Shown here: in pieces, positions 4,768 through 37,394 of the stretch
Layout of the letters: each line of letters begins with the position of its first letter
Numbering within the stretch: the stretch's first letter is position 1
Assembly (NCBI GenBank): GCA_038255685.1
Contig: JBBSLC010000003.1
Span: forward strand, 1 to 40,649
Length of the DNA: 40,649 nt
Direction of reading: 5' to 3'
DNA from: Acidimicrobiales bacterium
GTDB lineage: Bacteria; Actinomycetota; Acidimicrobiia; Acidimicrobiales; CADCSY01
Notes under the pieces: generated by a model
The model's input: only the letters and a program-made list of their open reading frames with translations
Databases searched by the model: none
Told to the model about the DNA's origin: nothing
Program-made: the position numbers and the translations under genes

Positions 4768-4813
4768 GCGCCGGCCTGCACCACCTCACCAACCGCCAGG
4801 AGCTGAACCACCC

Positions 4814-8708: not shown

Positions 8709-8774
8709 GGGCCGCGACCGTAGTTGGCGAGGTGTGGGGTTTCGCTCGGCGCGTTCGTTTGGAAGGGTGGGAGG

Positions 8775-13740: not shown

Positions 13741-16016
13741 CACCCGTGAACCGCACCACCTCGCCGAGCCCGGACCCGTCGAAGGAGGACGCCGCCATCG
13801 CCCAGCTCGTCGAGGGTCGTCACGGCGACCCGCACTCGGTCCTCGGTGCGCACCCGACCGGCGCGGGCTCGATGATCGTCCGCACGCTGCGCCCCGATGC
13901 CACCGGCGCGTCCGTGGTGCTGGCCGATGGTGTGACCGTGGCGATGGAGCAGGTGCACCCAGCGGGCGTGTTCGCGGCCACCGTCCCCCTCGCCAAGGGC
14001 AAGGCGACCAAGGGCGAGGCGAAGGGCGACGACGCATCGATGCCGGCCTACGGGCTCGAGGTGCGCTACGGCGACGACGCCTTTCCCGTGGACGACCCGT
14101 ACCGGTTCTGGCCCACCCTCGGCGATGTCGACCTGCACCTGATCGGTGAGGGTCGCCACGAACGCCTGTGGGAGGTGCTCGGCTCGCGCGTCCGCGAGCA
14201 CCAGGGCATCGCCGGCACCTCGTTCGCGGTGTGGGCGCCGAGCGCGCAGGCGGCCCGGGTCGTCGGAGACTTCAACGGCTGGGACGGGCGCCTCCACCCG
14301 ATGCGCTCCCTCGGGTCGAGCGGCGTCTGGGAGCTCTTCATCCCCGGGGTGGCTGCGGGTGCCCGCTACAAGTACGAGCTCGTCACCCCCGAGGGCGCCC
14401 TGCGGCTCAAGGCCGACCCGATGGCCTTCGAGGCCGAGCACCCGCCCGGTCAGTCGAGCATCGTCACCGAGAGCCGCTACGAGTGGGGCGATGCCGAGTG
14501 GCTGTCGCAGCGGGCCGCGGCCGACCCGATGCGGGCTCCGATGTCCGCCTACGAGGTGCACCTCGGCTCGTGGCGGACCGTGCCCGAAGAGGGCGACCGG
14601 CCGCTCACGTACCGCGAGATGGCGACGGTCCTCGTCGACCACGTCGCCGACCTCGGGTTCACCCACGTCGAGCTGATGCCGGTGAGCGAGCACCCGTACA
14701 CGCCCTCGTGGGGCTACCAGGTCTCCTCGTACTTCGCTCCCACCTCCCGCTTCGGGACGCCGGACGACTTCCGGGCCCTCGTCGACGCGTTCCACGCGCG
14801 TGGCATCGGCGTGATCGTGGACTGGGTCCCCGCCCACTTCCCCAAGGACGACTGGGCCCTCGCCCGCTTCGACGGCACCGCCCTCTACGAGCACGCCGAC
14901 CCCCGCCAGGGCGAGCACCCCGACTGGGGGACGCTCGTCTTCAACTTCGGGCGGAACGAGGTCCGCAACTTCCTCATGGCGAGCGCCCTCTACTGGATCG
15001 AGGAGCTGCACATCGACGGCCTGCGAGTCGACGCCGTCGCTTCGATGCTCTACCTCGACTACTCCCGCAAGGACGGCGAGTGGGTGCCGAACGAGCACGG
15101 GGGCCGGGAGAACCTCGAGGCCGTGTCGTTCCTCCAGGAGGTCAACACCGTCGTGCACGGCCGGTACCCGGGCGTGCTGACCATCGCCGAGGAGTCGACA
15201 GCGTGGCCCGGCGTCAGCCGTCCCGTGCACCTCGGCGGGCTCGGCTTCGGTCACAAGTGGAACATGGGCTGGATGCACGACACGCTCGAGTACTTCGCCA
15301 AGGACCCGATCCACCGGCGCTTCCACCACCACCAGCTCACGTTCGGGCTGATCTACGCCTTCAGCGAGAACTTCGTGCTGCCCCTCAGCCACGACGAGGT
15401 CGTCCACGGCAAGGGCTCGCTGCTCGGGAAGATGCCCGGTGACCGCTGGCAGCAGCTCGCCAACCTCCGGGCGCTCTACGCCTGGATGTGGGCGCACCCT
15501 GGCAAGCAGCTGCTGTTCATGGGTTGTGAGATCGCGCAGGAGCGCGAGTGGTCGGAGTCGAGGAGCCTCGACTGGCACCTGCTCGACGATCCCGGGCACG
15601 CCGGGATCCGAGACCTCGTCCGCGACCTCAACCACCTCCACGTCGCCGAGCCAGCGCTGTGGACCGGTGACTTCACCGCCGAGGGCTTCCGCTGGGTCGA
15701 CGCCAACGACGCCGACCAGAGCTGCATCTCCTTCCTCCGCCTCCCTGTCGGTGTCGACGGCGGCCCGGGCGATGGCCGACCGGTGCAGGCGATCGGCAAC
15801 CTCACGCCCGTCCCCCGCTACGGCTACCGGGTGGGCCTGCCGCAGGGTGGTCGGTGGCGCGTGCTGCTCAACTCCGACGCCCTCGCCTACGGCGGCAGCG
15901 GCATCGACGTCGGCCCGACCTTGGAGGCCGAGGACCGGGAGTGGCACGGCCTCGACCACTCAGCCGTGCTGACGCTGCCGCCGCTCGGCGTGGTCTGGCT
16001 CGCACCGGAGGACTGA
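13737..16016 (+). CDS. glgB: 1,4-alpha-glucan branching enzyme (GH13_9)
   Basis: [33 protein letters not shown] and [13 protein letters not shown] overlap with mak. Confidence 0.96.
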
Positions 16017-16062
16017 GCCCGAAGCCGTTCACCGCGGCCTGCGAACGGCCGATGGATGGAGG

Positions 16063-17802
16063 ATGAACACCAGGCTCCCGCCCGTGGCCCACGATGGGGT
16101 GGTGCACCCCCGTCCGGCTCGCGCCCTGGCCGTCCACTGCCACTTCTACCAACCGCCGCGCGAGAACCCCTGGACCGAGGAGGTCGGGATCGAGCTGTCG
16201 GCGGCGCCGGCACACGACTGGAACGAGCGCATCACCGACGAGAGCTACCGGCCCAACGGCTGGGCCGAGGTGCTCGACCACGGAGACGTGGTCGGCGTCG
16301 TCAACAACTACGCCAACCTGAGCTTCAACGTCGGCCCCACCCTGACGTCGTGGCTGGCCGCGCACGCACCCGATGTCCTCGGCCGGATGGTGGAGGGCGA
16401 CCGCGCCGGGGGTGGCGCCGTGGCGCAGGCGTACAACCACGCCATCCTCCCCCTCGCCGACGAGGCCGACGTCCGGACCCAGGTGCGGTGGGGCCTGGCC
16501 GACTTCCGCCACCGCTTCGGGCGGGAGGCGACCGGCATGTGGCTGCCCGAGGCAGCGGTCAGCGACCTCGTCCTCGCGGTGCTGGCCGAGGAGGGCGTCG
16601 GCTTCACGATCCTCGCCCCGGGCCAGGCCGCACGGGTCCGTCCGCTCGCCGCTGGTGGGGAGGTGGACCACGGACAGCCGTGGCACGACGTCTCCGGCGC
16701 CTCCGTGGACGGACGGAGGACCTACCGCTGGGTGCACCCGAGCGATCCGACGCTCGGCGTCGACCTCGTCTTCTACGACGGCTCGCTCTCCCACGACCTC
16801 GCCTTCAGCATCGGCTCGCTGCCGGCAGCCGTCCTCATCGACCGGGCGCTCGCGCATGCCCATGACGGGGGGCTCGTGTGCGCGGCGACGGACGGCGAGA
16901 CGTTCGGTCACCACCACCGACACGCCGAGCGGGCCCTGGCGTGGGCCCTGCCGCACGCCGCCCCCGAGGCCGGGCTCGACGTCACCACCGTGACCGCGCA
17001 CGTGCGCTCGCACCCCCCGACGTGGCAGGCCGAGGTGGCGATCTCGGCGTGGTCGTGTGCCCACGGCGTCGGCCGATGGTCGTCGGACTGCGGGTGCACC
17101 ACCGGCGGGCCAGGCGACACGCACGGCCGATGGCGGGCGCCGCTGAGGGCCGCGCTCGACATCGTGCGTGACGAGGGGCGCGCCGTGTTCGCCCGGCGCG
17201 CCCCCGGTGTGCTCATCGACCCGGTGGCTGCGCTCGACGCCTACGTGGAGGTGCTCATCGGCGCGCGGTCGGCCGGGGACTTCGCGGCAGCTCACGTCCT
17301 CGGCGGCAACGCCGCGTCGCTCGCCACCGTCGAGGCGCTCACCCTGCTCGAGCAGCAGCGCCAAGCCCAGCTGATGTACACGAGCTGCGCGTGGTTCTTC
17401 TGGGACGTGTCGGGTCTGGAGACGGTCCAGGTGCTGCGCTACGCCGCCCGAGCGATGGACCTGCTGGCCGAGCTCGGAGAGGAGCCCCCGCTGCGGTCGT
17501 TCCTCGAGGTCTTGGCGACGTCGGCGAGCAACCTCGCCGACGAGGGGAGCGGCCTTGACATCTGGCACCGCCACGTGGTGACGGCGCGGGTGACGCCAGC
17601 TGACGTCGCAGCCATCGTCGCCGAGGCGCTCGCCGCCTGCCTCCCGGTCGTGGGCACGGTCGTCGCAGGTCATCGCGTCGCTGCTGCCACCGGCACCCTC
17701 GACGGGCGCCACTGGGCGGGCACGGTGCTCCTCGTCCACGCCCGCACCCTGCGCCGCTCAGAGCACAGGGTGCGCAGCGAGGTCAGCGCGATCGCCGTCT
17801 AG
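16063..17802 (+). CDS. GH57 glycoside hydrolase, DUF3536-associated type (alternative start GTG 16102)
   Basis: HCHFYQPPRENPW, SFNVGPTL, QAYNHAILPLA, GMWLPE (nucleophile), ATDGETFGHH (acid/base), WSCAHGVGRW and MYTSCAWF. Confidence 0.88.
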   Translation: MNTRLPPVAHDGVVHPRPARALAVHCHFYQPPRENPWTEEVGIELSAAPAHDWNERITDESYRPNGWAEVLDHGDVVGVVNNYANLSFNVGPTLTSWLAAHAPDVLGRMVEGDRAGGGAVAQAYNHAILPLADEADVRTQVRWGLADFRHRFGREATGMWLPEAAVSDLVLAVLAEEGVGFTILAPGQAARVRPLAAGGEVDHGQPWHDVSGASVDGRRTYRWVHPSDPTLGVDLVFYDGSLSHDLAFSIGSLPAAVLIDRALAHAHDGGLVCAATDGETFGHHHRHAERALAWALPHAAPEAGLDVTTVTAHVRSHPPTWQAEVAISAWSCAHGVGRWSSDCGCTTGGPGDTHGRWRAPLRAALDIVRDEGRAVFARRAPGVLIDPVAALDAYVEVLIGARSAGDFAAAHVLGGNAASLATVEALTLLEQQRQAQLMYTSCAWFFWDVSGLETVQVLRYAARAMDLLAELGEEPPLRSFLEVLATSASNLADEGSGLDIWHRHVVTARVTPADVAAIVAEALAACLPVVGTVVAGHRVAAATGTLDGRHWAGTVLLVHARTLRRSEHRVRSEVSAIAV

Positions 17803-20280: not shown

Positions 20281-21426
20281 GTGGCTCCCCCCGCCGACGA
20301 CGAAGCCGACGGCGCGTCGGCCCCCCGGCCGTGGGCCATGCCAGGTTCCGGCGGCGGCGCTGCGGAGCCGCCTCTGCCTCCGCCACCACCTCCGCCACCC
20401 GGGTACGGGCCGCCTCCGGGGTACGGGCCGCCTCCGGGGTACGGGCCGCCACCTGGATGGGCCGGAGGATGGCTCCCGGCACCGCCGCGACCCAAGGCGG
20501 GCGGCGCCCGCACCGGGCCGCTGCCGCTGCACCCGATGACGGTGAGCGACATCCTCGACGGGGCGTTCCGGCTCATGAAGGCGAACGCTCGGGCCGTGCT
20601 CCCGATCGTCGCCGTCTTCGTCGTGCCGCTCCAGGTGATCGCTGCCTTCGCGCAGCGGAACCTCTTCGGTGGCGAGGGCCTGCTCGATGCCATCTCCGAT
20701 CCCTCGCTCGCGACCCAGGGGGCGTTCCAGACCGACGCCGACGCCCTCGTCGGCATCGGTGCGGGCCTGCTCAACATCCTCGTGCTCCCGTTCCTCGCAG
20801 GGGCGATCAGCCAGGTCGTCGCTGCCTCCTACCTGGGCCAGGAGCTCGGCGCCGCCGAGGCCCTGCGGTCGACGCTGCGACGATCCTGGGCGCTGTTCGG
20901 TGGCTGGGTGGTCGTCCACGTGCTCCAGCTCGCCGGCTTCCTCGTCGCCGGCGCCATCCTCCTCGCTCTCGTCCTCGCCGGCGCGCCAGAGGCAGGGCTC
21001 GTCGTGGCGCTGCTCCTCGGCGTGGTGACGGGCGTGCCCGTGCTGCTCGCTGTGATGGCGCTCTCCGTCGCGGTGGCGCCCGCGATCGTCGTCGAGGACC
21101 TCGGGCCCATCGCCGGCGTCCGTCGAGCGTGGTCGCTTGCCCGCCGACGCTTCTGGGCGGTGCTCGGGACCGCCCTGCTCGCCGGGCTCATCGCGTCGAC
21201 GCTCGGGCAGATCCTCGGGTTCATCCCCTCCCTCGGTGGCCTCCTGCTCGGGCTGCAGGGGGGCTGGGTCCTGCTCGCCGTCGGGGCCATCCTCACGGCG
21301 CTCATCACCCAGCCGATCGTCGCCATCGTGGCGACCCTGCAGTACTTCGACCTGCGGATCCGCTTCGAGGGCTTCGACCTCGAGGTGATCGCCGCCGAGC
21401 TCGCCGGCTCCGCACCCCGTCGATGA
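20281..21426 (+). CDS. Pro-rich multi-pass membrane protein (Rv3689-like), first gene of the MoxR operon
   Basis: Pro/Gly-rich N-terminus, PLHPMTVSDILDGAF, about 6 TM helices and YFDLRIRFEGFDL. TAGCAT plus 7 nt precedes GTG. Confidence 0.82.
   Translation: MAPPADDEADGASAPRPWAMPGSGGGAAEPPLPPPPPPPPGYGPPPGYGPPPGYGPPPGWAGGWLPAPPRPKAGGARTGPLPLHPMTVSDILDGAFRLMKANARAVLPIVAVFVVPLQVIAAFAQRNLFGGEGLLDAISDPSLATQGAFQTDADALVGIGAGLLNILVLPFLAGAISQVVAASYLGQELGAAEALRSTLRRSWALFGGWVVVHVLQLAGFLVAGAILLALVLAGAPEAGLVVALLLGVVTGVPVLLAVMALSVAVAPAIVVEDLGPIAGVRRAWSLARRRFWAVLGTALLAGLIASTLGQILGFIPSLGGLLLGLQGGWVLLAVGAILTALITQPIVAIVATLQYFDLRIRFEGFDLEVIAAELAGSAPRR
20401..20454 (+). repeat. 18-bp tandem repeat x3 encoding GYGPPP
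   Basis: gggtacgggccgcctccg twice, then gggtacgggccgccacct. Confidence 0.9.
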
Positions 21427-22040
21427 CCGACCTCCCCGTGCCCGAGGCCGGACCAGAGGAGGTGCGTCGACTCGCCGACCGGGTGCTCGCCGACGAGGTG
21501 TTCGACCGCGCCGAGCCCGGCCTGGTCGTCCAGGCGCGCGACTGGATCTTCGAGCAGGTCGGCGAGGCCCTCGACCGCCTGCTCGCGGCTGCCGGCGGTG
21601 GGCCGCTGGGGTGGGTCATCGTGGGGATCCTCGCGCTCGCTGCGGTCGTGCTCGCCGTCCGCTTCACCAGGGGCGTCCAGGGTGACCCCGACGATGGTGG
21701 GACGCCCGCGGGTCCTCGCCGCCCCGCGACGGACTGGCTCGCCGACGCCGAGCGGCTCGAGGCAGCGGGGGAGTGGCGGGCGAGCCTCCGGTGCCGCCAC
21801 CGCGCCCTCGTCGCCGCGCTCGCCGCTCGGGGGATCGTCGAGGAGGTGCCCGGGCGCACCGCAGCCGAGTACCGGGCCGCCGCCGTCGGCGTGGTGCCGG
21901 CGGTCGCGCCCGATCTCGCCGGTGCCACGGACCTGTTCGAGGGTGCGTGGTACGGCCGACGCCTCGTCGACGCCGAGGACGCCCGCCGGTTCCGGGACCT
22001 CTCCGAGCGCGTCCTCACCGCAGCCGGCGCCCGATCGTGA
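21423..22040 (+). CDS. DUF4129 domain membrane protein (Rv3690-like)
   Basis: One TM, then AERLEAAGEWRASLR...GRTAAEY...FEGAWYG. ATGA overlap with the upstream gene. Confidence 0.85.
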   Translation: MTDLPVPEAGPEEVRRLADRVLADEVFDRAEPGLVVQARDWIFEQVGEALDRLLAAAGGGPLGWVIVGILALAAVVLAVRFTRGVQGDPDDGGTPAGPRRPATDWLADAERLEAAGEWRASLRCRHRALVAALAARGIVEEVPGRTAAEYRAAAVGVVPAVAPDLAGATDLFEGAWYGRRLVDAEDARRFRDLSERVLTAAGARS

Positions 22041-23149
22041 GCGGGGCTCCGGTGAGCGGGCCCGGCCGGCGCAGGGATCGCCCGACGGCGCTCTGGGTCG
22101 CGCTGGGTGCAGCGGTCCTGGTCGGCGCGCTCGTGATCGGCGCCCCGGAGGGGGAGGGCGCTGCGCTTGACCCGACGAGCTCGGGACCCCTCGGCGCGCT
22201 CGGCCTGGTCCGCTTCCTGGAGGAGCTCGACGCCGAGGTGGCGCTCGCCCAGGATGCGCCGGGTCGCGAGATCGACGTCGCCCTCGTCCTCGCTGACCGG
22301 CTCGGCTCGGCGCGGCGAGACGACGTCCTCGCGTGGGTGCGGGGTGGCGGCACGCTGGTCGTCGCCGACCCCGGCTCGGCGCTCGTCCCGGTCCCGGTGA
22401 TCGGTGAGCTCTCCGATCCGCGAGCAGGCGAGGCGGGGTGCGGCATCGATGCGCTCGCCGGTGTGGGTGCGCTCGACGTCGACGGACTCGGCTTCGACCT
22501 CGGGGTGCGAGATCGGGGGTGCCTCGGAGACGGGACCAGCTTCTTCGTGGCCGCATCACCGCTCGGCGATGGCACGATCGTCTCCGTCGGCGGCGCCGGT
22601 GCGTGGGTGAACGAACGGCTCGGAGACCGTGACAACGCCGTGCTCGCCGGCGCACTGCTCGCGCCGGCCCCGGGGACCGTCGTCGCCGTCCTCCTCGCGC
22701 CACTCGTGGGGGACGGGACGGCGTCGCTGACCGACCTCGTCGGCGACGGGGTCAAGCAGGCGCTGCTGCAGCTCGGCCTTGCCTTCCTGCTCTACGCACT
22801 GTGGCGGGGGCGACGCCTCGGTGGACCCGTCCCCGAGGAGCAGCCGGTCACGCTGGCCGCCTCCGAGCTCGTCGTCGCCGTCGGGAACCTGCTCCAGCAG
22901 GGTCGCCACCACGAGCGCGCTGCCGCCATGATCCGCAACGATCTGCGACGCCACCTGGCGGCGCGCCTCGGTCTCCCCGTCGACGCGTCGCCCGACGCGG
23001 TCGCCGAGGCCGCCGGAGATCGCACCGGTCTCGACCACGCCCACCTGCTGCGCCTGCTCGCACCTGCCCCGACCCGGGGAGACGGCGACCTCGCCGCCCT
23101 CGCGTCCGATGCCCACGCCGTCACCGAGGAGCTCGCCCGTGCCCGATGA
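22037..23149 (+). CDS. DUF4350 domain membrane protein (Rv3691-like)
   Basis: N-terminal TM, LDPTSSGPLGALGL, WVRGGGTLVVA, NERLGDRDNAVLA, second TM, WRGRRLGGPVPE. GTGA overlap. Confidence 0.85.
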   Translation: MSGAPVSGPGRRRDRPTALWVALGAAVLVGALVIGAPEGEGAALDPTSSGPLGALGLVRFLEELDAEVALAQDAPGREIDVALVLADRLGSARRDDVLAWVRGGGTLVVADPGSALVPVPVIGELSDPRAGEAGCGIDALAGVGALDVDGLGFDLGVRDRGCLGDGTSFFVAASPLGDGTIVSVGGAGAWVNERLGDRDNAVLAGALLAPAPGTVVAVLLAPLVGDGTASLTDLVGDGVKQALLQLGLAFLLYALWRGRRLGGPVPEEQPVTLAASELVVAVGNLLQQGRHHERAAAMIRNDLRRHLAARLGLPVDASPDAVAEAAGDRTGLDHAHLLRLLAPAPTRGDGDLAALASDAHAVTEELARAR

Positions 23150-24149
23150 GACCGACCCGACACCCTCGTCGCCGGTGGAGCCTGCTGGCAGCGGGCGCAC
23201 CCCGCAGCGAGCCGTCCTCGACGTGCGTGACGAGGTGGCGAAGCTCGTGGTGGGCCAGGAAGGGGTGGTCTCGGGGCTCGTCGCCGCCCTGCTCGTGCGC
23301 GGCCACGTGCTGCTGGAGGGCGTGCCCGGGGTGGCGAAGACCTTGCTCGTCAAGGCGCTCGCTGCCTCGCTCGACCTCCAGACGACGCGCATCCAGTTCA
23401 CCCCGGACCTGATGCCCTCCGACGTCGTCGGCCAGACGATCCTCGACCCGTCGGCGGGCACCGGCGGCTTCCGCTTCCGGGAGGGCCCGGTGTTCACGAA
23501 CCTGCTGCTCGCCGACGAGATCAACCGCACGCCGCCGCGCACCCAGTCCGCCCTGCTCGAGGCGATGGAGGAGCGGCACGTCTCCTCCGACGGCGTGACC
23601 CGCCCGCTCCCTGACCCGTTCATCGTGATCGCGACCCAGAACCCGATCGAGTACGAGGGCACCTACCCGCTCCCCGAAGCCCAGCTCGACCGCTTCCTCT
23701 TCAAGCTCGTCGTCGGCTACCCGAGCGCCGAGGAGGAGCAGGTGATCCTGGCGCGCCACGATGCCGGCCAGGTACCCCACGACGTGCGCCAGAGCGCCAT
23801 CCGTGCCGTGGCCGGACCGGAGGACCTCGCCCTCGCCCGGTCCCAGGTCGAGGCGATCCGCTGCGACGAGCAGGTGCTCGGCTACATCGTCGCCCTCGTC
23901 CGGGCGACCCGGTCGTCGCCGTCACTGACCCTCGGCGTGTCACCTCGCGGGGCGACGATGCTGCTGCGGGCAGCCAAGGCGTGGGCGTGGCTGTCGGGGC
24001 GTGACTTCGTGACGCCCGACGACGTCAAGGCGATGGCCCGTTCGACCATGCGCCACCGCATCGCGCTGCGGGCCGAGGTCGAGCTCGAGGGTGGCACCGC
24101 CGACGGGGTGGTCGAAGGCCTGCTCGCCTCCACCGCCGTCCCCCGGTAG
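23139..24149 (+). CDS. moxR: MoxR-family AAA+ ATPase (MoxR2-like)
   Basis: [13 protein letters not shown] (Walker A), [54 protein letters not shown] and SPRG. GAGGAG precedes GTG 23139. Confidence 0.95.
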
Positions 24150-24160
24150 GCCCCCCGACC

Positions 24161-25468
24161 ATGCCCGTCCCCACCCGTCGCCTGGCGCTGCTCGCCGCTG
24201 CCCTGTTCGTCGCCGTGCTCGTCGCGCCGTTCCCCCTGCCGGGCTCGCTGCTCGTCGTGAACGGCCTGCTGCTCGCAGTCGCCGCCATCGACGGGTTGCT
24301 CGCGGCGCGACCGGGGGCGCTCGCTGTCAGTCGCGACCTCCCCGCTGTCGTGGCGCTCGAGGCCGAGGGGACCGTGACGTGGCGGGTGTCGAACCCGACG
24401 GGGAGGCGTGCGGTGGTGGCGCTGGCCGACGAGCTGGCGCCGTCGCTGCGGCCTGTGGACCGCCGGGCGCACCTGTCGATCGCGGCTGGTGCCACGGTGA
24501 CGGCCAGCACAGTGATCCGACCGTCCCGGCGTGGCAGGTTCGAGCCGTCGCGCGTCGTGCTCCGCGTCGACGGGCCGCTCGGCCTCGTGGCTCGCCAGGG
24601 TGCGGTCGTCGTGCCGGGCGTCCTGCGGGTGCACCCCCGGTACCGATCGAAGGAGCAGGCGGAGCTGCGCATCGACCGGGCCCGCATCCTCGAGGTCGGG
24701 CTCCGCTCGGCCAAGGGACGTGGTTCGGGCACGGAGTTCGAGTCGCTGCGCGACTACGGCCCCGACGACGAGTCCCGCAGGATCGACTGGTCGGCGACCG
24801 CTCGCACCGGACGACCGATCGTGCGCACGTACCGGGCCGAGCGCAACCAGTCGGTGCTGTGCCTCGTCGACCTCGGGCGCACGATGGCCGCCCGCGTCGA
24901 CGACGTCCCCCGGGTCGAGCACGCCATGGACGCAGTGATGATGCTGACCCACGTCGCCGGCCGCCTCGGAGATCGCGTCGGGCTCCTCGCCTACGACCGG
25001 GACGTGCGCGCAGTGGTGGCACCCCGGGGTGGGCCCCACCAGCTCCGTCGGGTGACCGAGGCGATGTACGACCTCGAGCCGGTGCTGGCCGAGAGCGATC
25101 ACCGGGGAGCGTTCACCGCCGCGCTGACCCGGTTCCGACGGCGGTCGCTCCTCGTCGTGCTGACCGAGCTGGCCGAGGAGTCCCTCACCGACACCCTGCT
25201 CCCGGCACTCCCGCTCATCCTCCGCGACCACCTCGTCGTCGTCGCCAGCGTCACCGACCCGGCGGTGGCGCGCTGGGCGACCGAGCGCCCGGACGGCGCG
25301 AGTGGTGCGTACCGCCGGGCAGCCGCCATCGCCTCGCTCGACGAGCGCCGCCGCGTCGTCGCCCGCCTGCGCGCCCTGGGTGCCACCGTCGTCGACGCCC
25401 CCCCCGGCGAGCTCGCCCCCCGCCTCACCGACACCTACCTCAAGGTGAAGGCGACGGGTCGGCTGTGA
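24161..25468 (+). CDS. DUF58 / vWA-like MoxR partner (Rv3693-like)
   Basis: Two N-terminal TMs, GTEFESLRDY...RRIDWSATAR, MIDAS-like VDLGRTM, GDRVGLLA and YLKVKATGRL. Confidence 0.92.
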   Translation: MPVPTRRLALLAAALFVAVLVAPFPLPGSLLVVNGLLLAVAAIDGLLAARPGALAVSRDLPAVVALEAEGTVTWRVSNPTGRRAVVALADELAPSLRPVDRRAHLSIAAGATVTASTVIRPSRRGRFEPSRVVLRVDGPLGLVARQGAVVVPGVLRVHPRYRSKEQAELRIDRARILEVGLRSAKGRGSGTEFESLRDYGPDDESRRIDWSATARTGRPIVRTYRAERNQSVLCLVDLGRTMAARVDDVPRVEHAMDAVMMLTHVAGRLGDRVGLLAYDRDVRAVVAPRGGPHQLRRVTEAMYDLEPVLAESDHRGAFTAALTRFRRRSLLVVLTELAEESLTDTLLPALPLILRDHLVVVASVTDPAVARWATERPDGASGAYRRAAAIASLDERRRVVARLRALGATVVDAPPGELAPRLTDTYLKVKATGRL

Positions 25469-26127
25469 CCGCCGGTGGGGAGGCGACCCGTGCACTCATC
25501 TTCGACTTCGACGGGCTCATCATCGACACCGAGGCGCTCTATGCGTCGACGCTGCTGCAGGTGCTGGCGGCTCGCGGGGTCACCACCGACCTCGAGGCCA
25601 TCGGGCACCTGTTCGGATCGACGGGTCCGGAGAACGACGCGGCGTGGGCGGCGAAGCTGGAGGAGTGGGCCATCGTCCACGACTCCGACGCCCTCGACGA
25701 GCTCATCCGCACCCGAGCCGGGTCCGGCTTCGACGAGCTGCCACTGCTGCCCGGCGTCGTCGACCTGCTCGACGCCGCTGCGGCGACCGGCTGGCGGACC
25801 GCGCTCGCCACAGGCAAGGCCCGCTGGCGCCTCGACGAGCACCTCGACCGACTCGGCATCGGGACGCGCTTCGACGTGATCGTCACCGCCGAGGAGGTCG
25901 CCAACGGCAAGCCCGCACCTGACATCTTCCTCGAGGCCGCCCGCCGCCTCGGCGTCGAACCCGAGCGCTGCGTCGTCCTCGAAGACTCGCTCCCCGGCTG
26001 TCGGGCTGCCCACGCCGCAGGCATGGTCGCCATCGCCTGTCCCGGTCCGGTCACCGCCAGCCTCACCTTCCCCGACGGCACCCGTCGGGTCGCCTCGCTC
26101 CTCGACGTCCGCCTCGACGAGCTCTGA
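25465..26127 (+). CDS. HAD-superfamily phosphatase (beta-PGM/CbbY-like)
   Basis: FDFDGLIIDTE, KPAPDIFLEAA and VLEDS motifs. GTGA overlap with DUF58. Confidence 0.9.
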   Translation: MTAGGEATRALIFDFDGLIIDTEALYASTLLQVLAARGVTTDLEAIGHLFGSTGPENDAAWAAKLEEWAIVHDSDALDELIRTRAGSGFDELPLLPGVVDLLDAAAATGWRTALATGKARWRLDEHLDRLGIGTRFDVIVTAEEVANGKPAPDIFLEAARRLGVEPERCVVLEDSLPGCRAAHAAGMVAIACPGPVTASLTFPDGTRRVASLLDVRLDEL

Positions 26128-26157
26128 GTCGCCGGGGAGGCGTGCAGGAGCCGCACG

Positions 26158-26470
26158 TCACCCCGGTGCCAGCACCGCCATGCCGTTCGCGCGGGCCGCC
26201 AGCGCGAGCCGATCGTCGTAGGTGACGATGCCGTCGAGGTCGTCGCCGAGGTCGAGCGCGGCGGCGAGGTGGATGGCGTCGAGGCTCCGCAGGACACCCG
26301 GGTCGATGCGCGCCGCTGCCTCGAAGACCGAGGTGGTGACTTCCGTGAGGGTGATCGAGTCGAGCACCTCGCGTGCGCGGAGGCGGTGCTCCGACGCATG
26401 GCGACGGGCTGCTCGCAGAAGCTCTGTTCGGGCGAAGTCGCAGGACACCGGGGCTCGTAGCTCATTGAGG
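26158..26470 (-). pseudogene. vapC: N-terminally truncated VapC (PIN) toxin remnant
   Basis: PVSCDFARTELLRA...LRSLDAIHLAAAL...IVTYDDRLA is VapC-like. The N-terminal YLDTSA motif and any vapB are absent. Confidence 0.75.
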
Positions 26471-26554
26471 CCCTGCTCTCGTCTCGACCGCCGGTCGACA
26501 TCGGGACCTACCATGCGCCGACGGGCAGCCTGCCCGCAGAGCCGGGGGGACGAG

Positions 26555-27688
26555 ATGGCTGTGGTCGACGCTGGGGTGGACGCGAGCGCGGTGCAGGCGC
26601 TGCTGGATCGGGCGCGGCGAGAGGTCGACGAGGGCTTGGTGCCCGCCTGCCAGGTTGCGCTGGCCCGCAACGGTGAGCTCGTGGCGTTCGAGGCGTTCGG
26701 CGACGCCACCACCTCGACCCGCTTCGTGGTGTTCTCGTGCACCAAGGCGTTCGTCGCCGGTGCGATGTGGATCCTGATCGGCGAGGGCAAGGTCGACGTC
26801 TCCAAGCGGGTGATCGACTACATCCCCGAGTTCGGGGCCAACGGCAAGGACGAGATCACCGTCGAGCAGGTCATGCTGCACACCTCGGGGTTCCCCCACG
26901 CGCCGCTCGGACCTCCCTCGTGGGACACCCGGGAGGGGCGGGTGGAGGCGATGGGCCGGTGGCGCCTGAACTGGGAGCCGGGTACCGCCTACGAGTACCA
27001 CCCGACCTCGGCGCACTGGGTCCTGGCCGAGATCATCGCCCGGGTGTCGGGCACCCCCGACCACCGTGACTTCGTCGAGCAGCGCATCACGACGCCTGCC
27101 GGCCTGCCACGTCTCCTCGGCATCGCAGCCGACGACCAGGACGACATCGCCGTGCTCGAGGTGCGGGGAGAGCCGGCCACGCCCGACGAGCTCGAAGCGG
27201 TCCTCGGCGTGCGGGAGCTCCCGGTCGGCGAGGTCACCGACGCCGCGCTCCTCGGGTTCAACGACCCGGCGGCGCGAGCCATCGGCGTGCCTGGGGGCGG
27301 CGGCGTGATGCGGGCCGCCGACCTCGCCCTGTACTACCAGCACCTGCTCCACGACGACGGGGAGACGTGGGACCCGAAGGTGAAGGCCGACGTGCTCACC
27401 AACGTGCGCAACACCTTCCCCGACCGCCTCACCGGGGTCCCGGCCAACCGCACCCTCGGGCTGATCCAGGCCGGTGGGGACGGCATGGCGACCCTGCGTG
27501 GCTTCGGCAAGACGACCTCGCCCCAGGCGGTCGGCCACGGTGGCGCCGCCGGCCAGATCGGTTGGGCGGACCCGGTGTCGGGGCTCTCGCTCGGCTACTG
27601 CACGAACGGGATCGACGCGAACATCCTTCGCCAGGCACGACGAGGTGTCGCCCTCTCGAGCCTCGCCGGGGCGTGCGCGCCGAGCTGA
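26555..27688 (+). CDS. serine hydrolase, beta-lactamase class C / esterase family VIII
   Basis: FSCTK (SxxK), LHTSG, EPGTAYEYH and GHGGAAG. GGGGGA SD before ATG 26555, TACCAT -10 at 26509-26514. Confidence 0.9.
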   Translation: MAVVDAGVDASAVQALLDRARREVDEGLVPACQVALARNGELVAFEAFGDATTSTRFVVFSCTKAFVAGAMWILIGEGKVDVSKRVIDYIPEFGANGKDEITVEQVMLHTSGFPHAPLGPPSWDTREGRVEAMGRWRLNWEPGTAYEYHPTSAHWVLAEIIARVSGTPDHRDFVEQRITTPAGLPRLLGIAADDQDDIAVLEVRGEPATPDELEAVLGVRELPVGEVTDAALLGFNDPAARAIGVPGGGGVMRAADLALYYQHLLHDDGETWDPKVKADVLTNVRNTFPDRLTGVPANRTLGLIQAGGDGMATLRGFGKTTSPQAVGHGGAAGQIGWADPVSGLSLGYCTNGIDANILRQARRGVALSSLAGACAPS

Positions 27689-27701
27689 GGCGGGACCGAC
27701 G

Positions 27702-28724
27702 TCAGGTCGGTGAGGGACCGTCGGCCCGTCGGGCGGTCGACGGCTCCTCGCCGAGCAGCCCGGAGAGCCCCCGTGCCGTCGCCGCCCGTCCGAGCACGAC
27801 GACGTAGGCGGTGAAGACGAGCCAGGCGAGCGCACCGATCGAGACCCGGATCGAGGTCGGCCAGGGCTGGCCCGTCACGAACCCCTCGATGAGCCCGGCC
27901 ACGAGGAAGGCGACGACGAGGCCGAGCACGATCGTCACCGAGCGGCGGCCCTGCTCGGCAAGTGCGTCGCGACGGGTCCGGTCACCGGGGACGATCACCG
28001 CCCACCCGAGGGCGAGGCCGGCAGCGCCGGCGACGATCACCGCCGAGAGCTCGAGCAGGCCGTGCGGCAGGATGAGGCCCCAGAAGCGGCCGGGCTCGCC
28101 GGCGGCGGTGAACAGCCCGGCGGCGACACCGACCGCAGCGCCGTTGTAGGCGAGCAGGGCGGCGGTCACGACGCACAGCAGGATGCCGGCGGCGAAGGCG
28201 AGGATCGCCACGCGGACGTTGTTGGTGAAGACGTTCGTGGCGAAGGCAGCAGCAGGCCCCGAGGAGTAGTACGCCTCGAAGTCGTCTTCGACGTAGGCCG
28301 CCCGCACCGCCGCGGGCGCACTTGCCTCGAGTGCCTGGTCCGAGGTCGCGATCCACACGGCGACGCCGGCGAAGGGCACGAGCAGGAGGAGGGAAGCGGC
28401 GAGGACGAACCGACGGACGTGCCACACCGCAGCGGGGAACGTGGCGATGGCGAAGTGGCCGAGGGCCCGTCCCGTCCTCGGTCGCGTCCCGTAGACGACG
28501 GCGTTCGACGAGGCGACCAAGCCGGTCAGCCGGGCGAGCAGCGTCGGGTCCCGGTAGTTGGTGCGGGCGTAGGAGAGGTGGCTCGAGGTGCGCTGGTAGA
28601 GGCGCACGAGCTCGTCGAGCTCGTCGGGGCCGAGGCTGCGGACGCCACGACGGGCACGGGCGGTCAGCGCCGAGAGGCGCGCCCACGTCGGGGTGTTCGT
28701 GGCGATGAAGCGGTCGACGTCCAC
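27702..28724 (-). CDS. SpoIIM-family membrane protein (Rv3694c-like)
   Basis: VDVDRFIA...WARL...ELVRLYQRTSSHLS, FTNNVRVA, ILPHGLLEL and AGLIEGFVT. Confidence 0.9.
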   Translation of the reverse strand: MDVDRFIATNTPTWARLSALTARARRGVRSLGPDELDELVRLYQRTSSHLSYARTNYRDPTLLARLTGLVASSNAVVYGTRPRTGRALGHFAIATFPAAVWHVRRFVLAASLLLLVPFAGVAVWIATSDQALEASAPAAVRAAYVEDDFEAYYSSGPAAAFATNVFTNNVRVAILAFAAGILLCVVTAALLAYNGAAVGVAAGLFTAAGEPGRFWGLILPHGLLELSAVIVAGAAGLALGWAVIVPGDRTRRDALAEQGRRSVTIVLGLVVAFLVAGLIEGFVTGQPWPTSIRVSIGALAWLVFTAYVVVLGRAATARGLSGLLGEEPSTARRADGPSPT

Positions 28725-28731
28725 GTCGCTC

Positions 28732-28790
28732 GCACGGTACCGGCACCGCCCGCAGCATCGCTCTCGGTCGCGACCGAGCCGGTACCGTGC
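28732..28790. promoter_or_regulatory. symmetric bidirectional promoter with a palindromic operator candidate
   Basis: Perfect 13-bp inverted repeat GCACGGTACCGGC (28732-28744) / GCCGGTACCGTGC (28778-28790), each arm containing TACCGT. Perfect 16-bp palindrome CTCGGTCGCGACCGAG at 28763-28778. Confidence 0.6.
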
Positions 28791-28794
28791 CGCC

Positions 28795-29586
28795 ATGGCG
28801 TCGCCCCGGCTCGTCACGCCCGAGGCGGTCGAGCTCCGCTTCGAGACGGCGAGCCTCGGCTCGCGCCTGCTCGCCGCCGGGATCGACCTCGCCATCCAGG
28901 GGACGCTCCTGCTCGTCGCGGTCGTCGGCCTCGGTCTGCTGTCGTTCCAGACCGGGTCGGCCACGGCCGGCATCGTCGTCCTCGTGCTGGCGATCACCGC
29001 CATCCTCCTCGGCTACCCGATCGCCTTCGAGACCCTGTGGCAGGGGAGGACGCCGGGCAAGGCGGCGCTCGGTCTGCGGGTGGTGGCGAAGGACGGCTCG
29101 CCGGTGCGGTTCCGCCACGCCGTCGTGCGCGGCTTCCTCACCCTCGTCGACGTCGTGCTCACCTCGGGTGTGGCGGCGGTGCTCAGCATCTTGTTCACAC
29201 CAAACGACCAGCGCCTCGGTGACCTCGCCGCCGGCACCCTCGTGATCCGGGAGCGCACCGGCGCGGGCGCGCCCCTCGCCATGCGCTTCACGGTCCCACC
29301 CGGGTGGGAGGGCTACGCCGCCACCATCGACGTCGCCGGCATGGGGGCCGACGACTACGGCGCCGCCCGGTCGGCGCTGTCGCGGGCGCCGTCGCTCCCG
29401 CCCGACGTGCGCGCCCGGCTGCTCGCCGACGTCGCCACGACCGTCGCCGCCCGCCTCGGCCACGTCCCGCCGCCCGGGGTGCCACCCGAGGCGTTCCTCA
29501 CCTGTGCAGCCGCCCGCTACCAGCAGCGCGCCGCTCCGGTCAGCGGTCCCGACCCCCTCGCCCCACCACCCCCGGCTCGCTGGTAG
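28795..29586 (+). CDS. RDD family membrane protein (Rv3695-like)
   Basis: VTPEAVEL, ASLGSRLLAAGID, GRTPGKAALGLRVV and QRLGDLAAGTLV. Confidence 0.92.
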   Translation: MASPRLVTPEAVELRFETASLGSRLLAAGIDLAIQGTLLLVAVVGLGLLSFQTGSATAGIVVLVLAITAILLGYPIAFETLWQGRTPGKAALGLRVVAKDGSPVRFRHAVVRGFLTLVDVVLTSGVAAVLSILFTPNDQRLGDLAAGTLVIRERTGAGAPLAMRFTVPPGWEGYAATIDVAGMGADDYGAARSALSRAPSLPPDVRARLLADVATTVAARLGHVPPPGVPPEAFLTCAAARYQQRAAPVSGPDPLAPPPPARW

Positions 29587-29608
29587 GAGCCCTCGGTAGC
29601 CTGGCTGC

Positions 29609-30772
29609 GTGGTGACGTACCTCGACCATGCCGCCACGACGCCGCTGCGACCCGAGGCGAGGGAGGCGGTCGTCGCCCAGCTCGACGCCGCCGGCGGCAA
29701 CTCGACCGGCAGCCACGCCCTCGCCCGTGCCAGCCGGCGGGTGGTGGAGGAAGCGCGGGACGAGGTGGCGGACGCCATCGGCTGCGCCCCCGGTGAGGTC
29801 GTCTTCACGAGCGGGGGCACCGAGGCCGACAACCTCGCCGTCAGCGGCGTGCTCGCGGCAACGGGAGGGACGGTGGTGTGCAGCGCCATCGAGCACCACG
29901 CAGTGCTCCACCCGGTCGAGGCGCAGCGAGGGCACCTCGCCCCGGTGACCGGGAGCGGGTTGGTCGACCTGGACGCGCTCGCCCAGCTGCTCGACGGGCT
30001 CGACGACGTCCGACTGGTCTCGGTCATGCTCGTGAACAACGAGGTCGGCAGCATCCAGCCGCTCGCCGAGGTGGCTGCGGTCGTGGCCCGCCACGCACCG
30101 GCCGCCGTGCTCCACACCGACGCCGTGCAGGCCGCGCCGTGGCTCGACCTGCGCGTCGTGGCGGCGCCCGCCCAGCTCGTCTCGATCAGCGCGCACAAGG
30201 TCGGCGGGCCGCAGGGCGTGGGAGCGCTCGTCGTCCGGGAGGGCACGCCGCTGCGCGCCCAGCTGCTCGGTGGTGGCCAGGAGCGCGAGCGCCGCAGCGG
30301 CACCCATGACGTCGCAGGTGTCGCCGGGCTCGCCGCCGCCCTCTCGGCTGCGGTGGCCGAGCGACACGAGGCCGTGGCTCGGGTCGGACGGCTGCGCGAC
30401 CGGCTGGCCGACGGGCTGCTCGCCACCGTGCCCGGCAGCGTGGAGACGGGCGCACGAGCGACCAAGGTGGCCGGCAGCTGCCATCTGCTCTTCGACGGCA
30501 TCGAGAGCGAGGGGCTGCTGATCCTGCTCGACCAGGTCGGCATCTGCGCCACCGCCGCCTCGTCGTGCGCGAGCGGCGCGCTCGAGCCGTCCCACGTGCT
30601 GGCTGCGATGGGCGTGCCCCGTGCCGCAGCCAAGGGGTCGCTCCGGCTCAGCCTGGGCGCCACGACGACCGAGGCCGAGGTCGACCACGCGCTCGCCGCG
30701 ATCCCGGACGCGGTCGCCCGCCTGCGCGAGCGCGAGCCGCTCGTGGAGCGATCCGGTGGGGCGCGCTCGTGA
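29609..30772 (+). CDS. iscS: cysteine desulfurase (IscS/NifS type)
   Basis: YLDHAATTP, FTSGGTEADN, HTDAVQA, SAHKVGGP (PLP Lys), RSGT and ASSCASG (catalytic Cys). Confidence 0.93.
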   Translation: MVTYLDHAATTPLRPEAREAVVAQLDAAGGNSTGSHALARASRRVVEEARDEVADAIGCAPGEVVFTSGGTEADNLAVSGVLAATGGTVVCSAIEHHAVLHPVEAQRGHLAPVTGSGLVDLDALAQLLDGLDDVRLVSVMLVNNEVGSIQPLAEVAAVVARHAPAAVLHTDAVQAAPWLDLRVVAAPAQLVSISAHKVGGPQGVGALVVREGTPLRAQLLGGGQERERRSGTHDVAGVAGLAAALSAAVAERHEAVARVGRLRDRLADGLLATVPGSVETGARATKVAGSCHLLFDGIESEGLLILLDQVGICATAASSCASGALEPSHVLAAMGVPRAAAKGSLRLSLGATTTEAEVDHALAAIPDAVARLREREPLVERSGGARS

Positions 30773-31806
30773 ACGTCCTCGTCGCCATGAGCGGCGGGGT
30801 CGACTCCTCCGTGGCCGCTGCGCTGCTGGTCGAGGCGGGCCACGACGTCACCGGTGCCACCATGAAGCTCTGGGGCGGCGCGTCGGATTCGGGGTGCTGC
30901 TCGGTGGCAGACGTGGACGACGCCCGTCGGGTTGCCCAGCAGCTCGGGATCGACCACTTCACGTTCGGCTTCGGCGACGACTTCGAGGCCGACGTGGTCG
31001 CTCCGTACGTCGCCGCCCACGCCGCCGGGCGCACGCCGAACCCGTGCATCGAGTGCAACCGCCACCTCAAGTTCGACCGCTTCCTCCGCCGAGCGGACGC
31101 CCTCGGCTTCGATGCCATCGCCACCGGCCACCACGCTCGGGTCGAGCGGTCGGGTGGTGCCTGGCACCTCCGGCGTGGCACGGACCGCGCCAAGGACCAG
31201 AGCTACGTGCTCCACATGCTCGGCCAGCGGGCGCTGGCGCTGACCCTGCTCCCCGTGGGCGAGCTGTCCAAGGCCGAGGTCCGAGCTCGCGCCGCGGCGG
31301 CGGGGTTGCGCACCGCCGACAAGGTCGACAGCCAGGACGTCTGCTTCATCACCGCCACCGGCGGGCGCGCTGGCTTCCTCGGGCCCCGGCTCGACCTGGC
31401 CCCGGGGCGCGTGGTGGACGGCGCGGGCAACGTGGTCGGTTCGGTCCCTGCGGTGCAGCTCGTCACCATCGGTCAGCGTCGGGGGCTGGGCCTGCCCGGC
31501 GGCTCCGACGCACGCTTCGTGACCGGGGTCGACGTCACCGCCGGCACCGTCACCGTCGGGCGGGCCGAGGACCTGCTCGTGGACGAGGTGGTGGTCGGAG
31601 ACGTGACGTGGGTCGACGGACCGGTGACCGGCGACGTCGAGGTCCAGGTCTCCGCCCACGGGGAGGCACATCCTGCCCGGTTCGAGGTCACCGGCCAGCA
31701 CGCTGGCTGCGTGCGCCTGGAGACGCCGATCCGTCGGGTGGCCCCAGGGCAGAGCGTCGTGCTCTACCGCGGCGACGACGTCCTCGGCGGCGGCACGGCG
31801 GCTTGA
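30769..31806 (+). CDS. mnmA: tRNA 2-thiouridine(34) synthase
   Basis: AMSGGVDSS (PP-loop), TPNPCIECN, ATGHHA, KDQSYVL, SQDVCF, TIGQRRGL and APGQSVVLY. GTGA overlap with iscS. Confidence 0.95.
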   Translation: MNVLVAMSGGVDSSVAAALLVEAGHDVTGATMKLWGGASDSGCCSVADVDDARRVAQQLGIDHFTFGFGDDFEADVVAPYVAAHAAGRTPNPCIECNRHLKFDRFLRRADALGFDAIATGHHARVERSGGAWHLRRGTDRAKDQSYVLHMLGQRALALTLLPVGELSKAEVRARAAAAGLRTADKVDSQDVCFITATGGRAGFLGPRLDLAPGRVVDGAGNVVGSVPAVQLVTIGQRRGLGLPGGSDARFVTGVDVTAGTVTVGRAEDLLVDEVVVGDVTWVDGPVTGDVEVQVSAHGEAHPARFEVTGQHAGCVRLETPIRRVAPGQSVVLYRGDDVLGGGTAA

Positions 31807-31818
31807 GGTCGCTTCTGC

Positions 31819-31863
31819 TTTCTGGACGCTCAACCACCGCTCAGGTGGTCGAACATCCAGAAA
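31819..31863 (-). terminator. long hairpin between convergent mnmA and DUF4395 (terminator or REP-like palindrome)
   Basis: Minus-strand RNA TTTCTGGATGTTCGACCACC-TGAGC-GGTGGTTGAGCGTCCAGAAA forms a 20-bp stem with 3 G-U pairs. Confidence 0.65.
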
Positions 31864-34486: not shown

Positions 34487-36511
<2,025 letters not shown>

Positions 36512-36939: not shown

Positions 36940-37292
36940 GGCGCCACCGGACTCGTCTCGGTCGCGAAGAGGCGGGACAGCCGCCGGTTCATGACCTCGA
37001 TCCGGATGCGCAGCTCGCCGGCGGGGAGGTCGTCCCACACCGCCTCCATCACCTTGAACAGGCGGGGGTAGACGATGCCCTCGATGTCAGCGGCGAGGCC
37101 CGGGGACACGGGACCGATCTGCTGGCGGACGAGGACCGCGTGGAGGAACCGGGCGATCTGGTGCAGCGTCGGGTCCGCCGTCTCGCCCCCCGCTGCCTCG
37201 AGCCGCTCCACCAGCGCAGCGAGCTCGATCGGGTCCCAGAGCTGGCCGCGGCCGATGAACGCCTCGAGGTCCTCCATCGCCGCAGCGCGCAC
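36936..37292 (-). CDS. hypothetical helical cytoplasmic protein (start GTG 37292 or ATG 37277)
   Basis: MEDLEAFIGRGQLWDPIEL...IEGIVYPRLFKVMEA...NRRLSRLF. CAGGAT plus 6 nt precedes GTG. Confidence 0.7.
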   Translation of the reverse strand: MRAAAMEDLEAFIGRGQLWDPIELAALVERLEAAGGETADPTLHQIARFLHAVLVRQQIGPVSPGLAADIEGIVYPRLFKVMEAVWDDLPAGELRIRIEVMNRRLSRLFATETSPVAP

Positions 37293-37394
37293 GACACGAT
37301 CCTGCCCGACCGAGGTCCCGTCGGCGACATCAGGGGGTTGCCACGTTGCGGGGGATGCCCGATCTGGCGCTCGGGCGGCGGTACCCTCCGATCC

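Follow-up and report, generated by a model that had tools for sequence, protein, structure and literature searches.

The stretch of DNA analysed here, positions 1 to 40,649 of contig JBBSLC010000003.1 of an Acidimicrobiales bacterium (assembly GCA_038255685.1) and hereafter the window, carries at positions 20281 to 29586 a cluster of seven genes that encode a MoxR AAA+ ATPase, a DUF58 protein and proteins of the DUF7544/DUF7847, DUF4129, DUF4350, SpoIIM and RDD families. Judged by their sequence families, these seven genes equal, family for family, the six genes PA4318 through PA4323 of Pseudomonas aeruginosa that score in a published survival screen. By gene content the cluster is of the Arc2 type, and a membrane-defence function is predicted for it in its actinobacterial host. 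The original prediction, made from the letters of the window, had taken the system to be undescribed and without an established function; this is contradicted by the published defence role of the homologous arc2 genes, in part against the toxin ColA (PMC8926400), so that a known function explains the module in part.

The seven-gene cluster

The genes of the cluster, with the evidence for each, are:

20281-21426, plus strand: gene A, DUF7544/DUF7847-family membrane protein (Pfam DUF7544, E 1.4e-8; Atlas; transmembrane (TM) scan)
21423-22040, plus strand: gene B, DUF4129 (Pfam, E 9.4e-14); one TM segment and a C-terminal DUF4129 domain, predicted cytoplasmic
22037-23149, plus strand: gene C, DUF4350 (Pfam, above cut-off); PA4321 type
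23139-24149, plus strand: gene D, MoxR AAA+ ATPase (Pfam AAA_3 plus lid); PA4322 type
24161-25468, plus strand: gene E, DUF58 (Pfam, above cut-off; VWA_2 below cut-off); PA4323 type
27702-28724, minus strand: SpoIIM-family membrane protein (Pfam, E 8.4e-41; GTG start at 28724); PA4319 type
28795-29586, plus strand: RDD-family membrane protein with a C-terminal soluble domain (Pfam, E 9.6e-19); PA4318 type

All seven open reading frames (ORFs) are intact and have Pfam matches above cut-off, so the set is complete, as had been predicted. Gene A, which starts at GTG 20281 or ATG 20338, encodes a Pro-rich N-terminus and about six TM segments. The five-gene operon, the divergence of SpoIIM from RDD and the membrane nature of six of the seven proteins were likewise borne out: genes A through E are tightly coupled (intergenic gaps of -4, -4, -11 and +11 bases), the SpoIIM and RDD genes diverge with 70 bp between their starts, and a hydropathy scan finds membrane segments in six products, the weak MoxR signal (1.64) being taken as non-TM. 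The operon had also been said to face the SpoIIM gene, and the two are indeed convergent, but not directly, since 2.2 kb with three genes, overlooked in that prediction, lie between them. No sigma-70 promoter or intrinsic terminator patterns were found, NCBIfam has no name for any of the six non-ATPase proteins, and an ESM Atlas search returned only already known families. The non-ATPase cluster genes are single-copy in the host genome (83% complete), and close homologues carry the label Acidimicrobiales. We note that this genome has three further MoxR-DUF58 pairs (G000:C5, C66 and C101), whose DUF58 proteins belong to other subtypes.

Phenotype of the homologous arc2 genes

PA4317 through PA4323 of P. 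aeruginosa were named arc2A-G (antagonism resistance cluster 2) by Ting 2022 (PMC8926400), who noted a MoxR and a vWA protein in arc2 and the co-occurrence of the genes in Pseudomonadaceae and Xanthomonadaceae. Loss of any of PA4318-PA4323 lowers survival when B. thailandensis attacks with its type VI secretion system (T6SS), partly via ColA, a colicin-like toxin for which pore-forming activity is predicted (PMC8926400). The transposon sequencing (Tn-seq) survival ratios against this T6SS were, for PA4318 through PA4323, 8.9, 16.1, 17.4, 6.9, 12.1 and 20.5, with replicate values of 6.4, 8.6, 9.8, 6.8, 2.0 and 5.0, and PA4317 is absent from the hit lists in the accessible sections; the ColA-specific ratios were 3.2-5.3 for PA4319, PA4320, PA4322 and PA4323 (PMC8926400). 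A second arc2 deletion gave no added defect, arc2 mutants grew like the wild type when there was no antagonism, arc2 was dispensable under heat, peroxide, salt and detergent, and its expression was very low unless Gac/Rsm was active (PMC8926400). Within the literature covered, which takes in few subscription papers, we found no mechanism or structure for Arc2 and no link of Arc2 to the mycobacterial genes Rv3689-Rv3695 discussed below.

Correspondence of the window genes to arc2

Pseudomonadaceae loci served as stand-ins for P. aeruginosa arc2, and the map was anchored on the published deletion primers. The primer upstream of PA4320 matched 120 loci (P. aeruginosa itself is not among them), 80 of them with flanks, and in 80 of these 80 the match lies within a SpoIIM gene; a second primer has matches in 26 of 301 Pseudomonadaceae genomes. 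The primer translations give the two ends of PA4320 (LTDASV and GWRSLF) and of PA4323 (MKPS and GVL-stop), a MoxR motif upstream of PA4323 (TQNPIE) and a SpoIIM peptide upstream of PA4320 (FGFYIMN), and in the Pseudomonadaceae loci these peptides coincide with the ends of a fusion of A and B and with those of DUF58. Profiles built from acidimicrobial sequences only found matches in the 80 primer-anchored loci for A in 62, B in 47, C in 71, MoxR in 58, DUF58 in 60, SpoIIM in 79 and RDD in 77; 25 of the 80 are shorter than 16 kb, and the ORF filter drops Arg-rich ORFs, by which some MoxR and DUF58 calls were lost in these family counts. With iterated profiles all seven families are present in 49 of the 55 full-length loci.

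Genes A and B were compared by hhalign. Gene A aligns with the N-domain of PA4320-type proteins at 96% (E 4.5e-9, 222 columns) and with a PA4317-type profile at 97%, and gene B aligns with its proteobacterial counterparts, the PA4320-type C-terminal part, at 98%; controls gave 0.1-0.2%. RDD, SpoIIM and DUF58 are clear reciprocal best hits, C was found by the reverse profile at E 5.6e-17, and the cluster MoxR is the best hit in nine of nine other genomes searched. Identities to the Pseudomonadaceae copies are about 47-51% for MoxR, about 37-46% for RDD, about 29-35% for DUF58 and about 26-32% for SpoIIM. By these comparisons RDD is the counterpart of PA4318, SpoIIM of PA4319, A and B together of PA4320 (fused there), DUF4350 of PA4321, MoxR of PA4322 and DUF58 of PA4323.

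The six core families thus stand in one locus both here and in the Pseudomonadaceae stand-ins, and the two differ in arrangement. PA4320 is split here into genes A and B, and the window has no separate PA4317-type gene, whereas 38 stand-alone ORFs of that type were seen in the 80 primer loci (their identity with PA4317 is by position only). SpoIIM here converges on DUF58 with RDD divergent, whereas in the Pseudomonadaceae the genes all point the same way, as RDD-SpoIIM-AB-C-D-E; the window has an insertion of three foreign genes; and the actinobacterial host lies outside the range of Gac/Rsm.

Closer in layout is the mycobacterial moxR2 locus, Rv3689-Rv3695, with its M. chelonae and M. abscessus orthologues, which, compared by the locus tags in a published table, has the same families in the same order and orientation (Rv3689, Rv3691 DUF4350, Rv3692 MoxR, Rv3693 DUF58, Rv3694c SpoIIM and Rv3695 RDD; PMC8191103), in agreement with what had been claimed for the window. 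The mycobacterial locus tags are consecutive, hence there are no inserted genes, unlike in the window. The identity of Rv3690 within the locus falls outside that table and is our assumption. The same arrangement is found in Nonomuraea and, with B and C fused, in Nocardia. No assigned function for the mycobacterial locus was found in the literature covered. In M. chelonae the locus is strongly down-regulated along with glpK/glpF (PMC8191103), the affected genes being one contiguous block; no evidence of function was drawn from this. MSMEG_6606-6612 (PMC4694148) was taken to be another MoxR/DUF58 locus and not used.

Distribution and co-inheritance

Among the relatives of the host the SpoIIM subtype is present in 32 of 60 (G332 left out), and the cluster is present in 20 of the 32 genomes of the host's family; 17 of 28 relatives' loci have all seven families, as do 14 of the 20 loci that are at least 16 kb long. 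Actinomycetota were sampled evenly (without G365 and G472): of 149 genomes, 36 carry the SpoIIM subtype and 35 that of DUF58, all 35 being within the 36. In 30 of these the two genes lie within 10 kb on one contig, and in 28 of the 30 they are on opposite strands. In the Pseudomonadota sample the SpoIIM subtype is present in 18 of 151 genomes and the DUF58 subtype in 19 of 151, all 18 being within the 19. The two subtypes therefore co-occur far beyond chance, the genomes counted being related and hence not independent, and the co-occurrence across genomes on which the original prediction depended is confirmed. In the phylum of a genome labelled Akkermansiaceae, 7 of 61 genomes were positive. 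Further actinobacterial stretches contain all seven families in 20 of 22 cases, including named Nonomuraea and Nocardia records, and the remaining two are one genome in which the cluster is divided over two contigs. All seven families are present in five of nine Pseudomonadota stretches, and the seven verrucomicrobial stretches have three to six families each, with gene A in none.

Natural fusions join several of the genes. A and B are fused in Pseudomonadaceae and Lysobacter and split in Bordetella and Variovorax, RDD is fused to SpoIIM in two Bordetella loci (L012 and L031), and B is fused to C, with loss of the outside DUF4350 domain, in Nocardia and L181. Because such fusions cross the halves of the cluster, and because it has been conserved through several rearrangements, the seven genes most simply form one functional unit, and the data point to such a unit across three phyla.

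Several irregular copies were seen. In a reduced variant (L164:4004-5869 and L181:9469-10539) DUF4129 is joined to the C-terminal part of the DUF4350 protein and a short Pro-rich loop replaces the outside domain. DUF58 appears to be in two pieces at G400:C1:259654-260991 and in L146, for which frameshift, sequencing error or decay are possible causes. A MoxR gene that groups with verrucomicrobial cluster MoxRs (L222/L241, G514:C19) has no system genes nearby, and that genome also contains a locus with RDD, SpoIIM and DUF58 but no MoxR (L200); a second copy that became dispersed is a possible explanation. The cluster of L038 (G516, titled Chitinophaga pinensis, the genome being classed as Pseudomonadota) is nearly identical to a Lysobacter one.

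The insert between DUF58 and SpoIIM

The three genes that separate the two halves of the cluster in the window are:

25465-27688: lineage-specific insert of three genes (Pfam; contig bridging)
25465-26127, plus strand: HAD hydrolase (Pfam); overlaps the DUF58 stop by 4 bases
26158-about 26500, minus strand: PIN/VapC-like gene, 5'-truncated (Pfam; N-terminal part missing)
26555-27688, plus strand: beta-lactamase-fold serine hydrolase (Pfam)

One contig from run X1 (this run may itself be the source) spans the insert, and contigs from X4, an independent study, cross both junctions. The HAD, PIN and beta-lactamase genes are absent from all 28 relatives' loci, and the three were rejected as parts of the system on this ground; the 4-base coupling of HAD to DUF58 is misleading for the same reason. 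At the same convergent DUF58-SpoIIM junction relatives have unrelated genes (LtrA, Uma2, UvrD, DUF222, Hsp20 and a macro domain, seen in L135, L143, L146, L152, L137, L138 and L140); no five-gene half lies within about 9 kb in L137, L138 or L140. The junction is an insertion site, the insert is not part of the system, and the window holds an ordinary copy of the cluster with a local three-gene insert. The PIN gene resembles a remnant of a toxin-antitoxin pair, and no antitoxin gene was seen alongside it.

The MoxR-DUF58 pair

Walker A (residue 61) and Walker B (residue 123) are both present in MoxR, as are sensor 1, sensor 2 and the Arg finger, and the protein matches PDB entry 2r44 (E 2.4e-73). 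A model of DUF58 (predicted local distance difference test, pLDDT, 87.3) has a predicted TM hairpin (4-47), an Ig-like domain (55-158), a finger-like segment and a vWA domain (231-432). [quoted passage not shown] A PDB sequence search gave no meaningful relative for DUF58, SpoIIM, RDD, A or B, the matches to B being designed repeat proteins. Three further features lie within DUF58:

24713-24844, plus strand: finger-like segment, residues 185-228 (conservation; located directly ahead of the vWA core, like the NorD finger); predicted to enter the MoxR pore
24869-24883, plus strand: degenerate MIDAS start, D237-L-G-R-T241 (alignment of 76 non-redundant sequences)
25436-25468, plus strand: C-terminal motif Y426-x3-K430-x2-G-x-L435-stop (conservation); predicted second MoxR contact

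The finger-like segment is the most conserved part of DUF58 (mean column conservation 0.60, against 0.37-0.55 elsewhere), and model confidence in it is low (pLDDT below 50 at 183-207 and 220-226). At the C-terminus the Tyr is kept in 76 of 76 sequences, the Lys in 72 of 76 and a terminal Leu or Ile in 72 of 76; Leu or Ile ends 112 of 117 full-length copies. In NorQD the finger before the vWA core enters the pore of the ring and the last residues bind the post-sensor-1 loop (PMC13036017); removal of the two C-terminal residues of NorD abolishes co-purification, and removal of the finger abolishes remodelling (PMC13036017, PMC9976466). By their positions the finger-like segment and terminal Leu of DUF58 would correspond to these two NorQ contacts and are likewise expected to touch MoxR.

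A MoxR ATPase with a vWA partner is common to this system and to NorQ/NorD, CbbQ/CbbO and Rea1/Midasin, and the conserved pre-vWA segment and hydrophobic C-terminus correspond in position to the finger and tail of NorD. Unlike NorD, DUF58 is membrane-anchored, has an Ig-like domain and is without the DxSxS MIDAS that NorD uses for its client. The DLGRT motif, which had been put forward as MIDAS-like, is degenerate and not conserved across the family: Asp237 is kept in 75 of 76 sequences, Gly occupies the first Ser position in 61 of 76, and D-x-[ST]-x-[ST] is found in only 3 of 76. The window protein combines DLGRT with a Glu at the likely last MIDAS position and does not have the intact MIDAS (DxSxS-T-D). 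The system is for this reason not filed as NorQ/NorD-type, though it may work alike.

The membrane proteins

SpoIIM has invariant N169, N170, H222, E226 and E281 in 73 sequences (residues counted from 28727; a count from the GTG at 28724 gives numbers lower by one), and RDD has invariant R24, D31 and D143, so that SpoIIM and RDD are the likeliest working core of the assembly. The coupling parts are most likely A, B and C, which always stand next to D and E. The SpoIIM model (pLDDT 92.6) has an N-terminal three-helix bundle, and a fold search with it matched only that bundle, which is generic (best Z 8.8), the membrane domain being barely covered. B, C, RDD and SpoIIM each have a cytoplasmic tail, and hhalign detects no relation between these tails (0.2-6%). 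Among the window ORFs scanned there is no Pfam match to SpoIID or SpoIIP, the DMP engulfment partners of B. subtilis; the rest of the genome was not searched. The DUF4350 protein is predicted to have an N-terminal anchor, an outside domain, a second TM segment and an inside helical tail, and a PDB search with it gave weak matches to glycosidase domains and IFT52. The two cysteines of its large outside domain had been brought forward as an argument; C135 and C162 are indeed kept in 18 of 22 acidimicrobial sequences, but in 0 of 73 others at those columns, so the argument fails across the family. We note that RDD has a weak PADLOC match to the anti-phage PD-T4-6 model (E 5e-6), which implies only a shared domain.

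A proposed mechanism and its alternatives

The interpretation we lean towards, tentatively and with slightly less than even confidence, is that a membrane-tethered MoxR/vWA motor remodels a membrane assembly and in this way clears or seals toxin pores. The MoxR ring would grip the membrane-anchored DUF58 adaptor, whose finger, by analogy with NorQ/NorD, would enter the MoxR pore while its C-terminal Leu would bind the post-sensor-1 loop. ATP hydrolysis could then rotate the vWA domain against the anchored N-terminal part of DUF58, and the twist would pass via the Ig domain and TM hairpin into an assembly of A, B, C, SpoIIM and RDD; this route for the force is suggested, in place of a metal-bridged acidic residue, because the MIDAS is degenerate. 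The remodelled partner proteins would clear or seal the toxin-made pores. The predicted client is an inserted pore-former, and the actinobacterial copy is predicted to have the same job. The idea of an ATP-driven trans-membrane machine in the original prediction survives in part: a co-inherited, membrane-bound MoxR/vWA module most likely is an ATP-driven remodelling device, but it is not an undescribed one. The wider proposal, that Arc2 is a cross-phylum ATP-driven anti-pore machine whose MIDAS-less tethered motor extracts pore-forming toxins from the cytoplasmic membrane or plugs them there, in monoderm Actinomycetota (with the mycobacterial Rv3689-Rv3695 among them) and in Gram-negative bacteria alike, is possible but doubtful. 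The mycobacterial SpoIIM (Rv3694c) and RDD (Rv3695) occur in one co-immunoprecipitation list with the division protein Rv0954, which is weak evidence of contact (PMC8093794).

A number of observations weigh against the assignment to Arc2 and the anti-pore function. Proteobacteria-only profiles of A and B, run against the whole host genome at E 0.01, did not retrieve the window genes; in the reverse MoxR search a paralogue scores almost equally (265 vs 263 and 255 vs 255 bits); and in the MoxR tree (40 of 69 rows used) the cluster MoxRs are not one clade, with three label changes, although a single MoxR origin is not rejected (p-AU 0.26, the row of L222, which has no system genes in its neighbourhood, having been added after the tree was seen). 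NorD is tied with other vWA domains, the top rows of the fold search lying within about 1-1.5 Z of each other. The outside DUF4350 domain is missing in two actinomycete loci, so this domain is not a required sensor. The published ColA effect is modest (3- to 5-fold, four of six genes), the ColA pore is itself only predicted, and the wording chosen in the original paper is 'a degree of specific protection' (PMC8926400). A CRISPR interference (CRISPRi) screen with V. cholerae, a carrier of the pore-former VasX, and with A. baylyi as attackers did not give arc2 as a hit, and its authors regard the target class of arc2 as unknown (PMC12663445); the protection is then real but narrow, or the target class is not simply pores. 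Gac/Rsm is limited to gamma-Proteobacteria, so regulation must differ in this Acidimicrobiales-like actinobacterium. Monoderms are not known as usual targets of T6SS attack.

The invariant Asn, His and Glu residues of SpoIIM would be unusual in a passive scaffold, and together with the likeness of the DUF58 fold to NorD and the insertion of iron into a membrane enzyme by NorQD (PMC9976466, PMC13036017) they could mean that MoxR/DUF58 is a NorQ/NorD-like chaperone that loads metal into an intramembrane site of SpoIIM, an enzyme that would then cut or modify toxin or damaged membrane components. We judge this unlikely: client binding by NorD needs the intact MIDAS that this DUF58 subfamily is without, and SpoIIM-family proteins of B. 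subtilis and archaea mostly occur without these partners, the only characterised one being a scaffold (PMC5898192). A general machine for envelope assembly, export or division, with no dedicated defence role and an indirect Pseudomonas phenotype, is suggested by the neighbourhoods of DUF4350, vWA and MoxR genes that Makarova 2015 predicted to encode a secretion or membrane-remodelling complex, by the resemblance of DUF4350 to GldG/IFT52-type domains (PMC5898192, and the weak PDB matches above), by the co-purification of Rv3694c and Rv3695 with Rv0954 (PMC8093794) and by the constancy of its chromosomal position next to iscS-mnmA among relatives (20 and 19 of 28 loci). Such a role sits poorly with the wild-type growth of arc2 mutants without antagonism and under four general stresses, with the very low arc2 expression when Gac/Rsm is inactive (PMC8926400), with the patchy distribution of the cluster (36 of 149 Actinomycetota, 18 of 151 Pseudomonadota and 20 of 32 host-family genomes) and with the lack of a recurrent cargo or surface-protein gene in the annotated loci (junction genes and four flanking genes), and it too seems improbable.

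The archaeal arCOG01314 system of the same prediction shares with the window the presence of DUF4350, an Ig/vWA protein and MoxR in one operon, and SpoIIM is placed there beside vWA and COG0714 (MoxR) genes in bacteria, as here (PMC5898192). It is a prediction only, however; its S-layer/Ig surface proteins are not among the ORFs of the window locus, its vWA protein is treated as secreted where that of the window is predicted to be cytoplasmic on a TM hairpin, and its description, in the accessible sections, is without RDD or DUF4129 (PMC5898192). Finally, the membrane subunits might form an ion-exchange module, RDD being a cation/proton antiporter, that offsets toxin-driven depolarisation, leaves the toxin untouched and is gated or assembled by MoxR/DUF58. 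For one RDD protein Na+(Li+,K+)/H+ antiport was reported (PMC5996927), and RDD and SpoIIM both carry invariant charged residues and are fused in Bordetella. This explanation we hold to be very unlikely, as the B. subtilis RDD protein SppI causes no change in salt or alkali resistance and is a protease regulator (PMC7568657), arc2 mutants are not salt-sensitive (PMC8926400), and a collapsed gradient is not restorable by an antiporter alone, a matter of established bioenergetics.

Other genes in the window

Around the cluster the window has the following:

4403-6136: SPFH/Band 7 protein
6145-17802: glycogen/GlgE pathway block (phosphorylase, GlgE, TreS-like amylase, maltokinase, GlgB, GH57), ordinary
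27982-31833, minus strand: open frame of 1283 codons on the strand opposite RDD, iscS and mnmA, regarded as a shadow frame due to high GC
29609-31806, plus strand: iscS-mnmA, following RDD
34496-36511: NAD-dependent DNA ligase
37140-39467: PASTA-domain Ser/Thr kinase

The genes iscS and mnmA recur in 20 and 19 of 28 relatives' loci, and an upstream methyltransferase and a galT-like gene in 9 and 6 of 28. Both sets of neighbours probably reflect chromosomal synteny and are not parts of the system.

Significance

The defence role of arc2 was already known, and parts of the cluster had been predicted to be a secretion or membrane-remodelling system by Makarova 2015 (PMC5898192); what the present analysis contributes is a link from a widespread cluster to a phenotype already in print and to an explicit motor model. 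Of the genomes sampled, about one in four Actinomycetota and one in eight Pseudomonadota carry the cluster, and the link to arc2 supplies it with a phenotype, an assay (killing by ColA) and a model strain, while the NorQ/NorD structures give three handles, namely Walker B, the DUF58 finger and the last residues of DUF58. The anti-pore function, if true, would amount to dedicated, non-cognate protection from pore formers, with a vWA adaptor that passes force to a membrane client by a new route. If the cluster does the same job in monoderms, the mycobacterial moxR2 locus would gain a function, and bacteria a general machine against pore-forming toxins.

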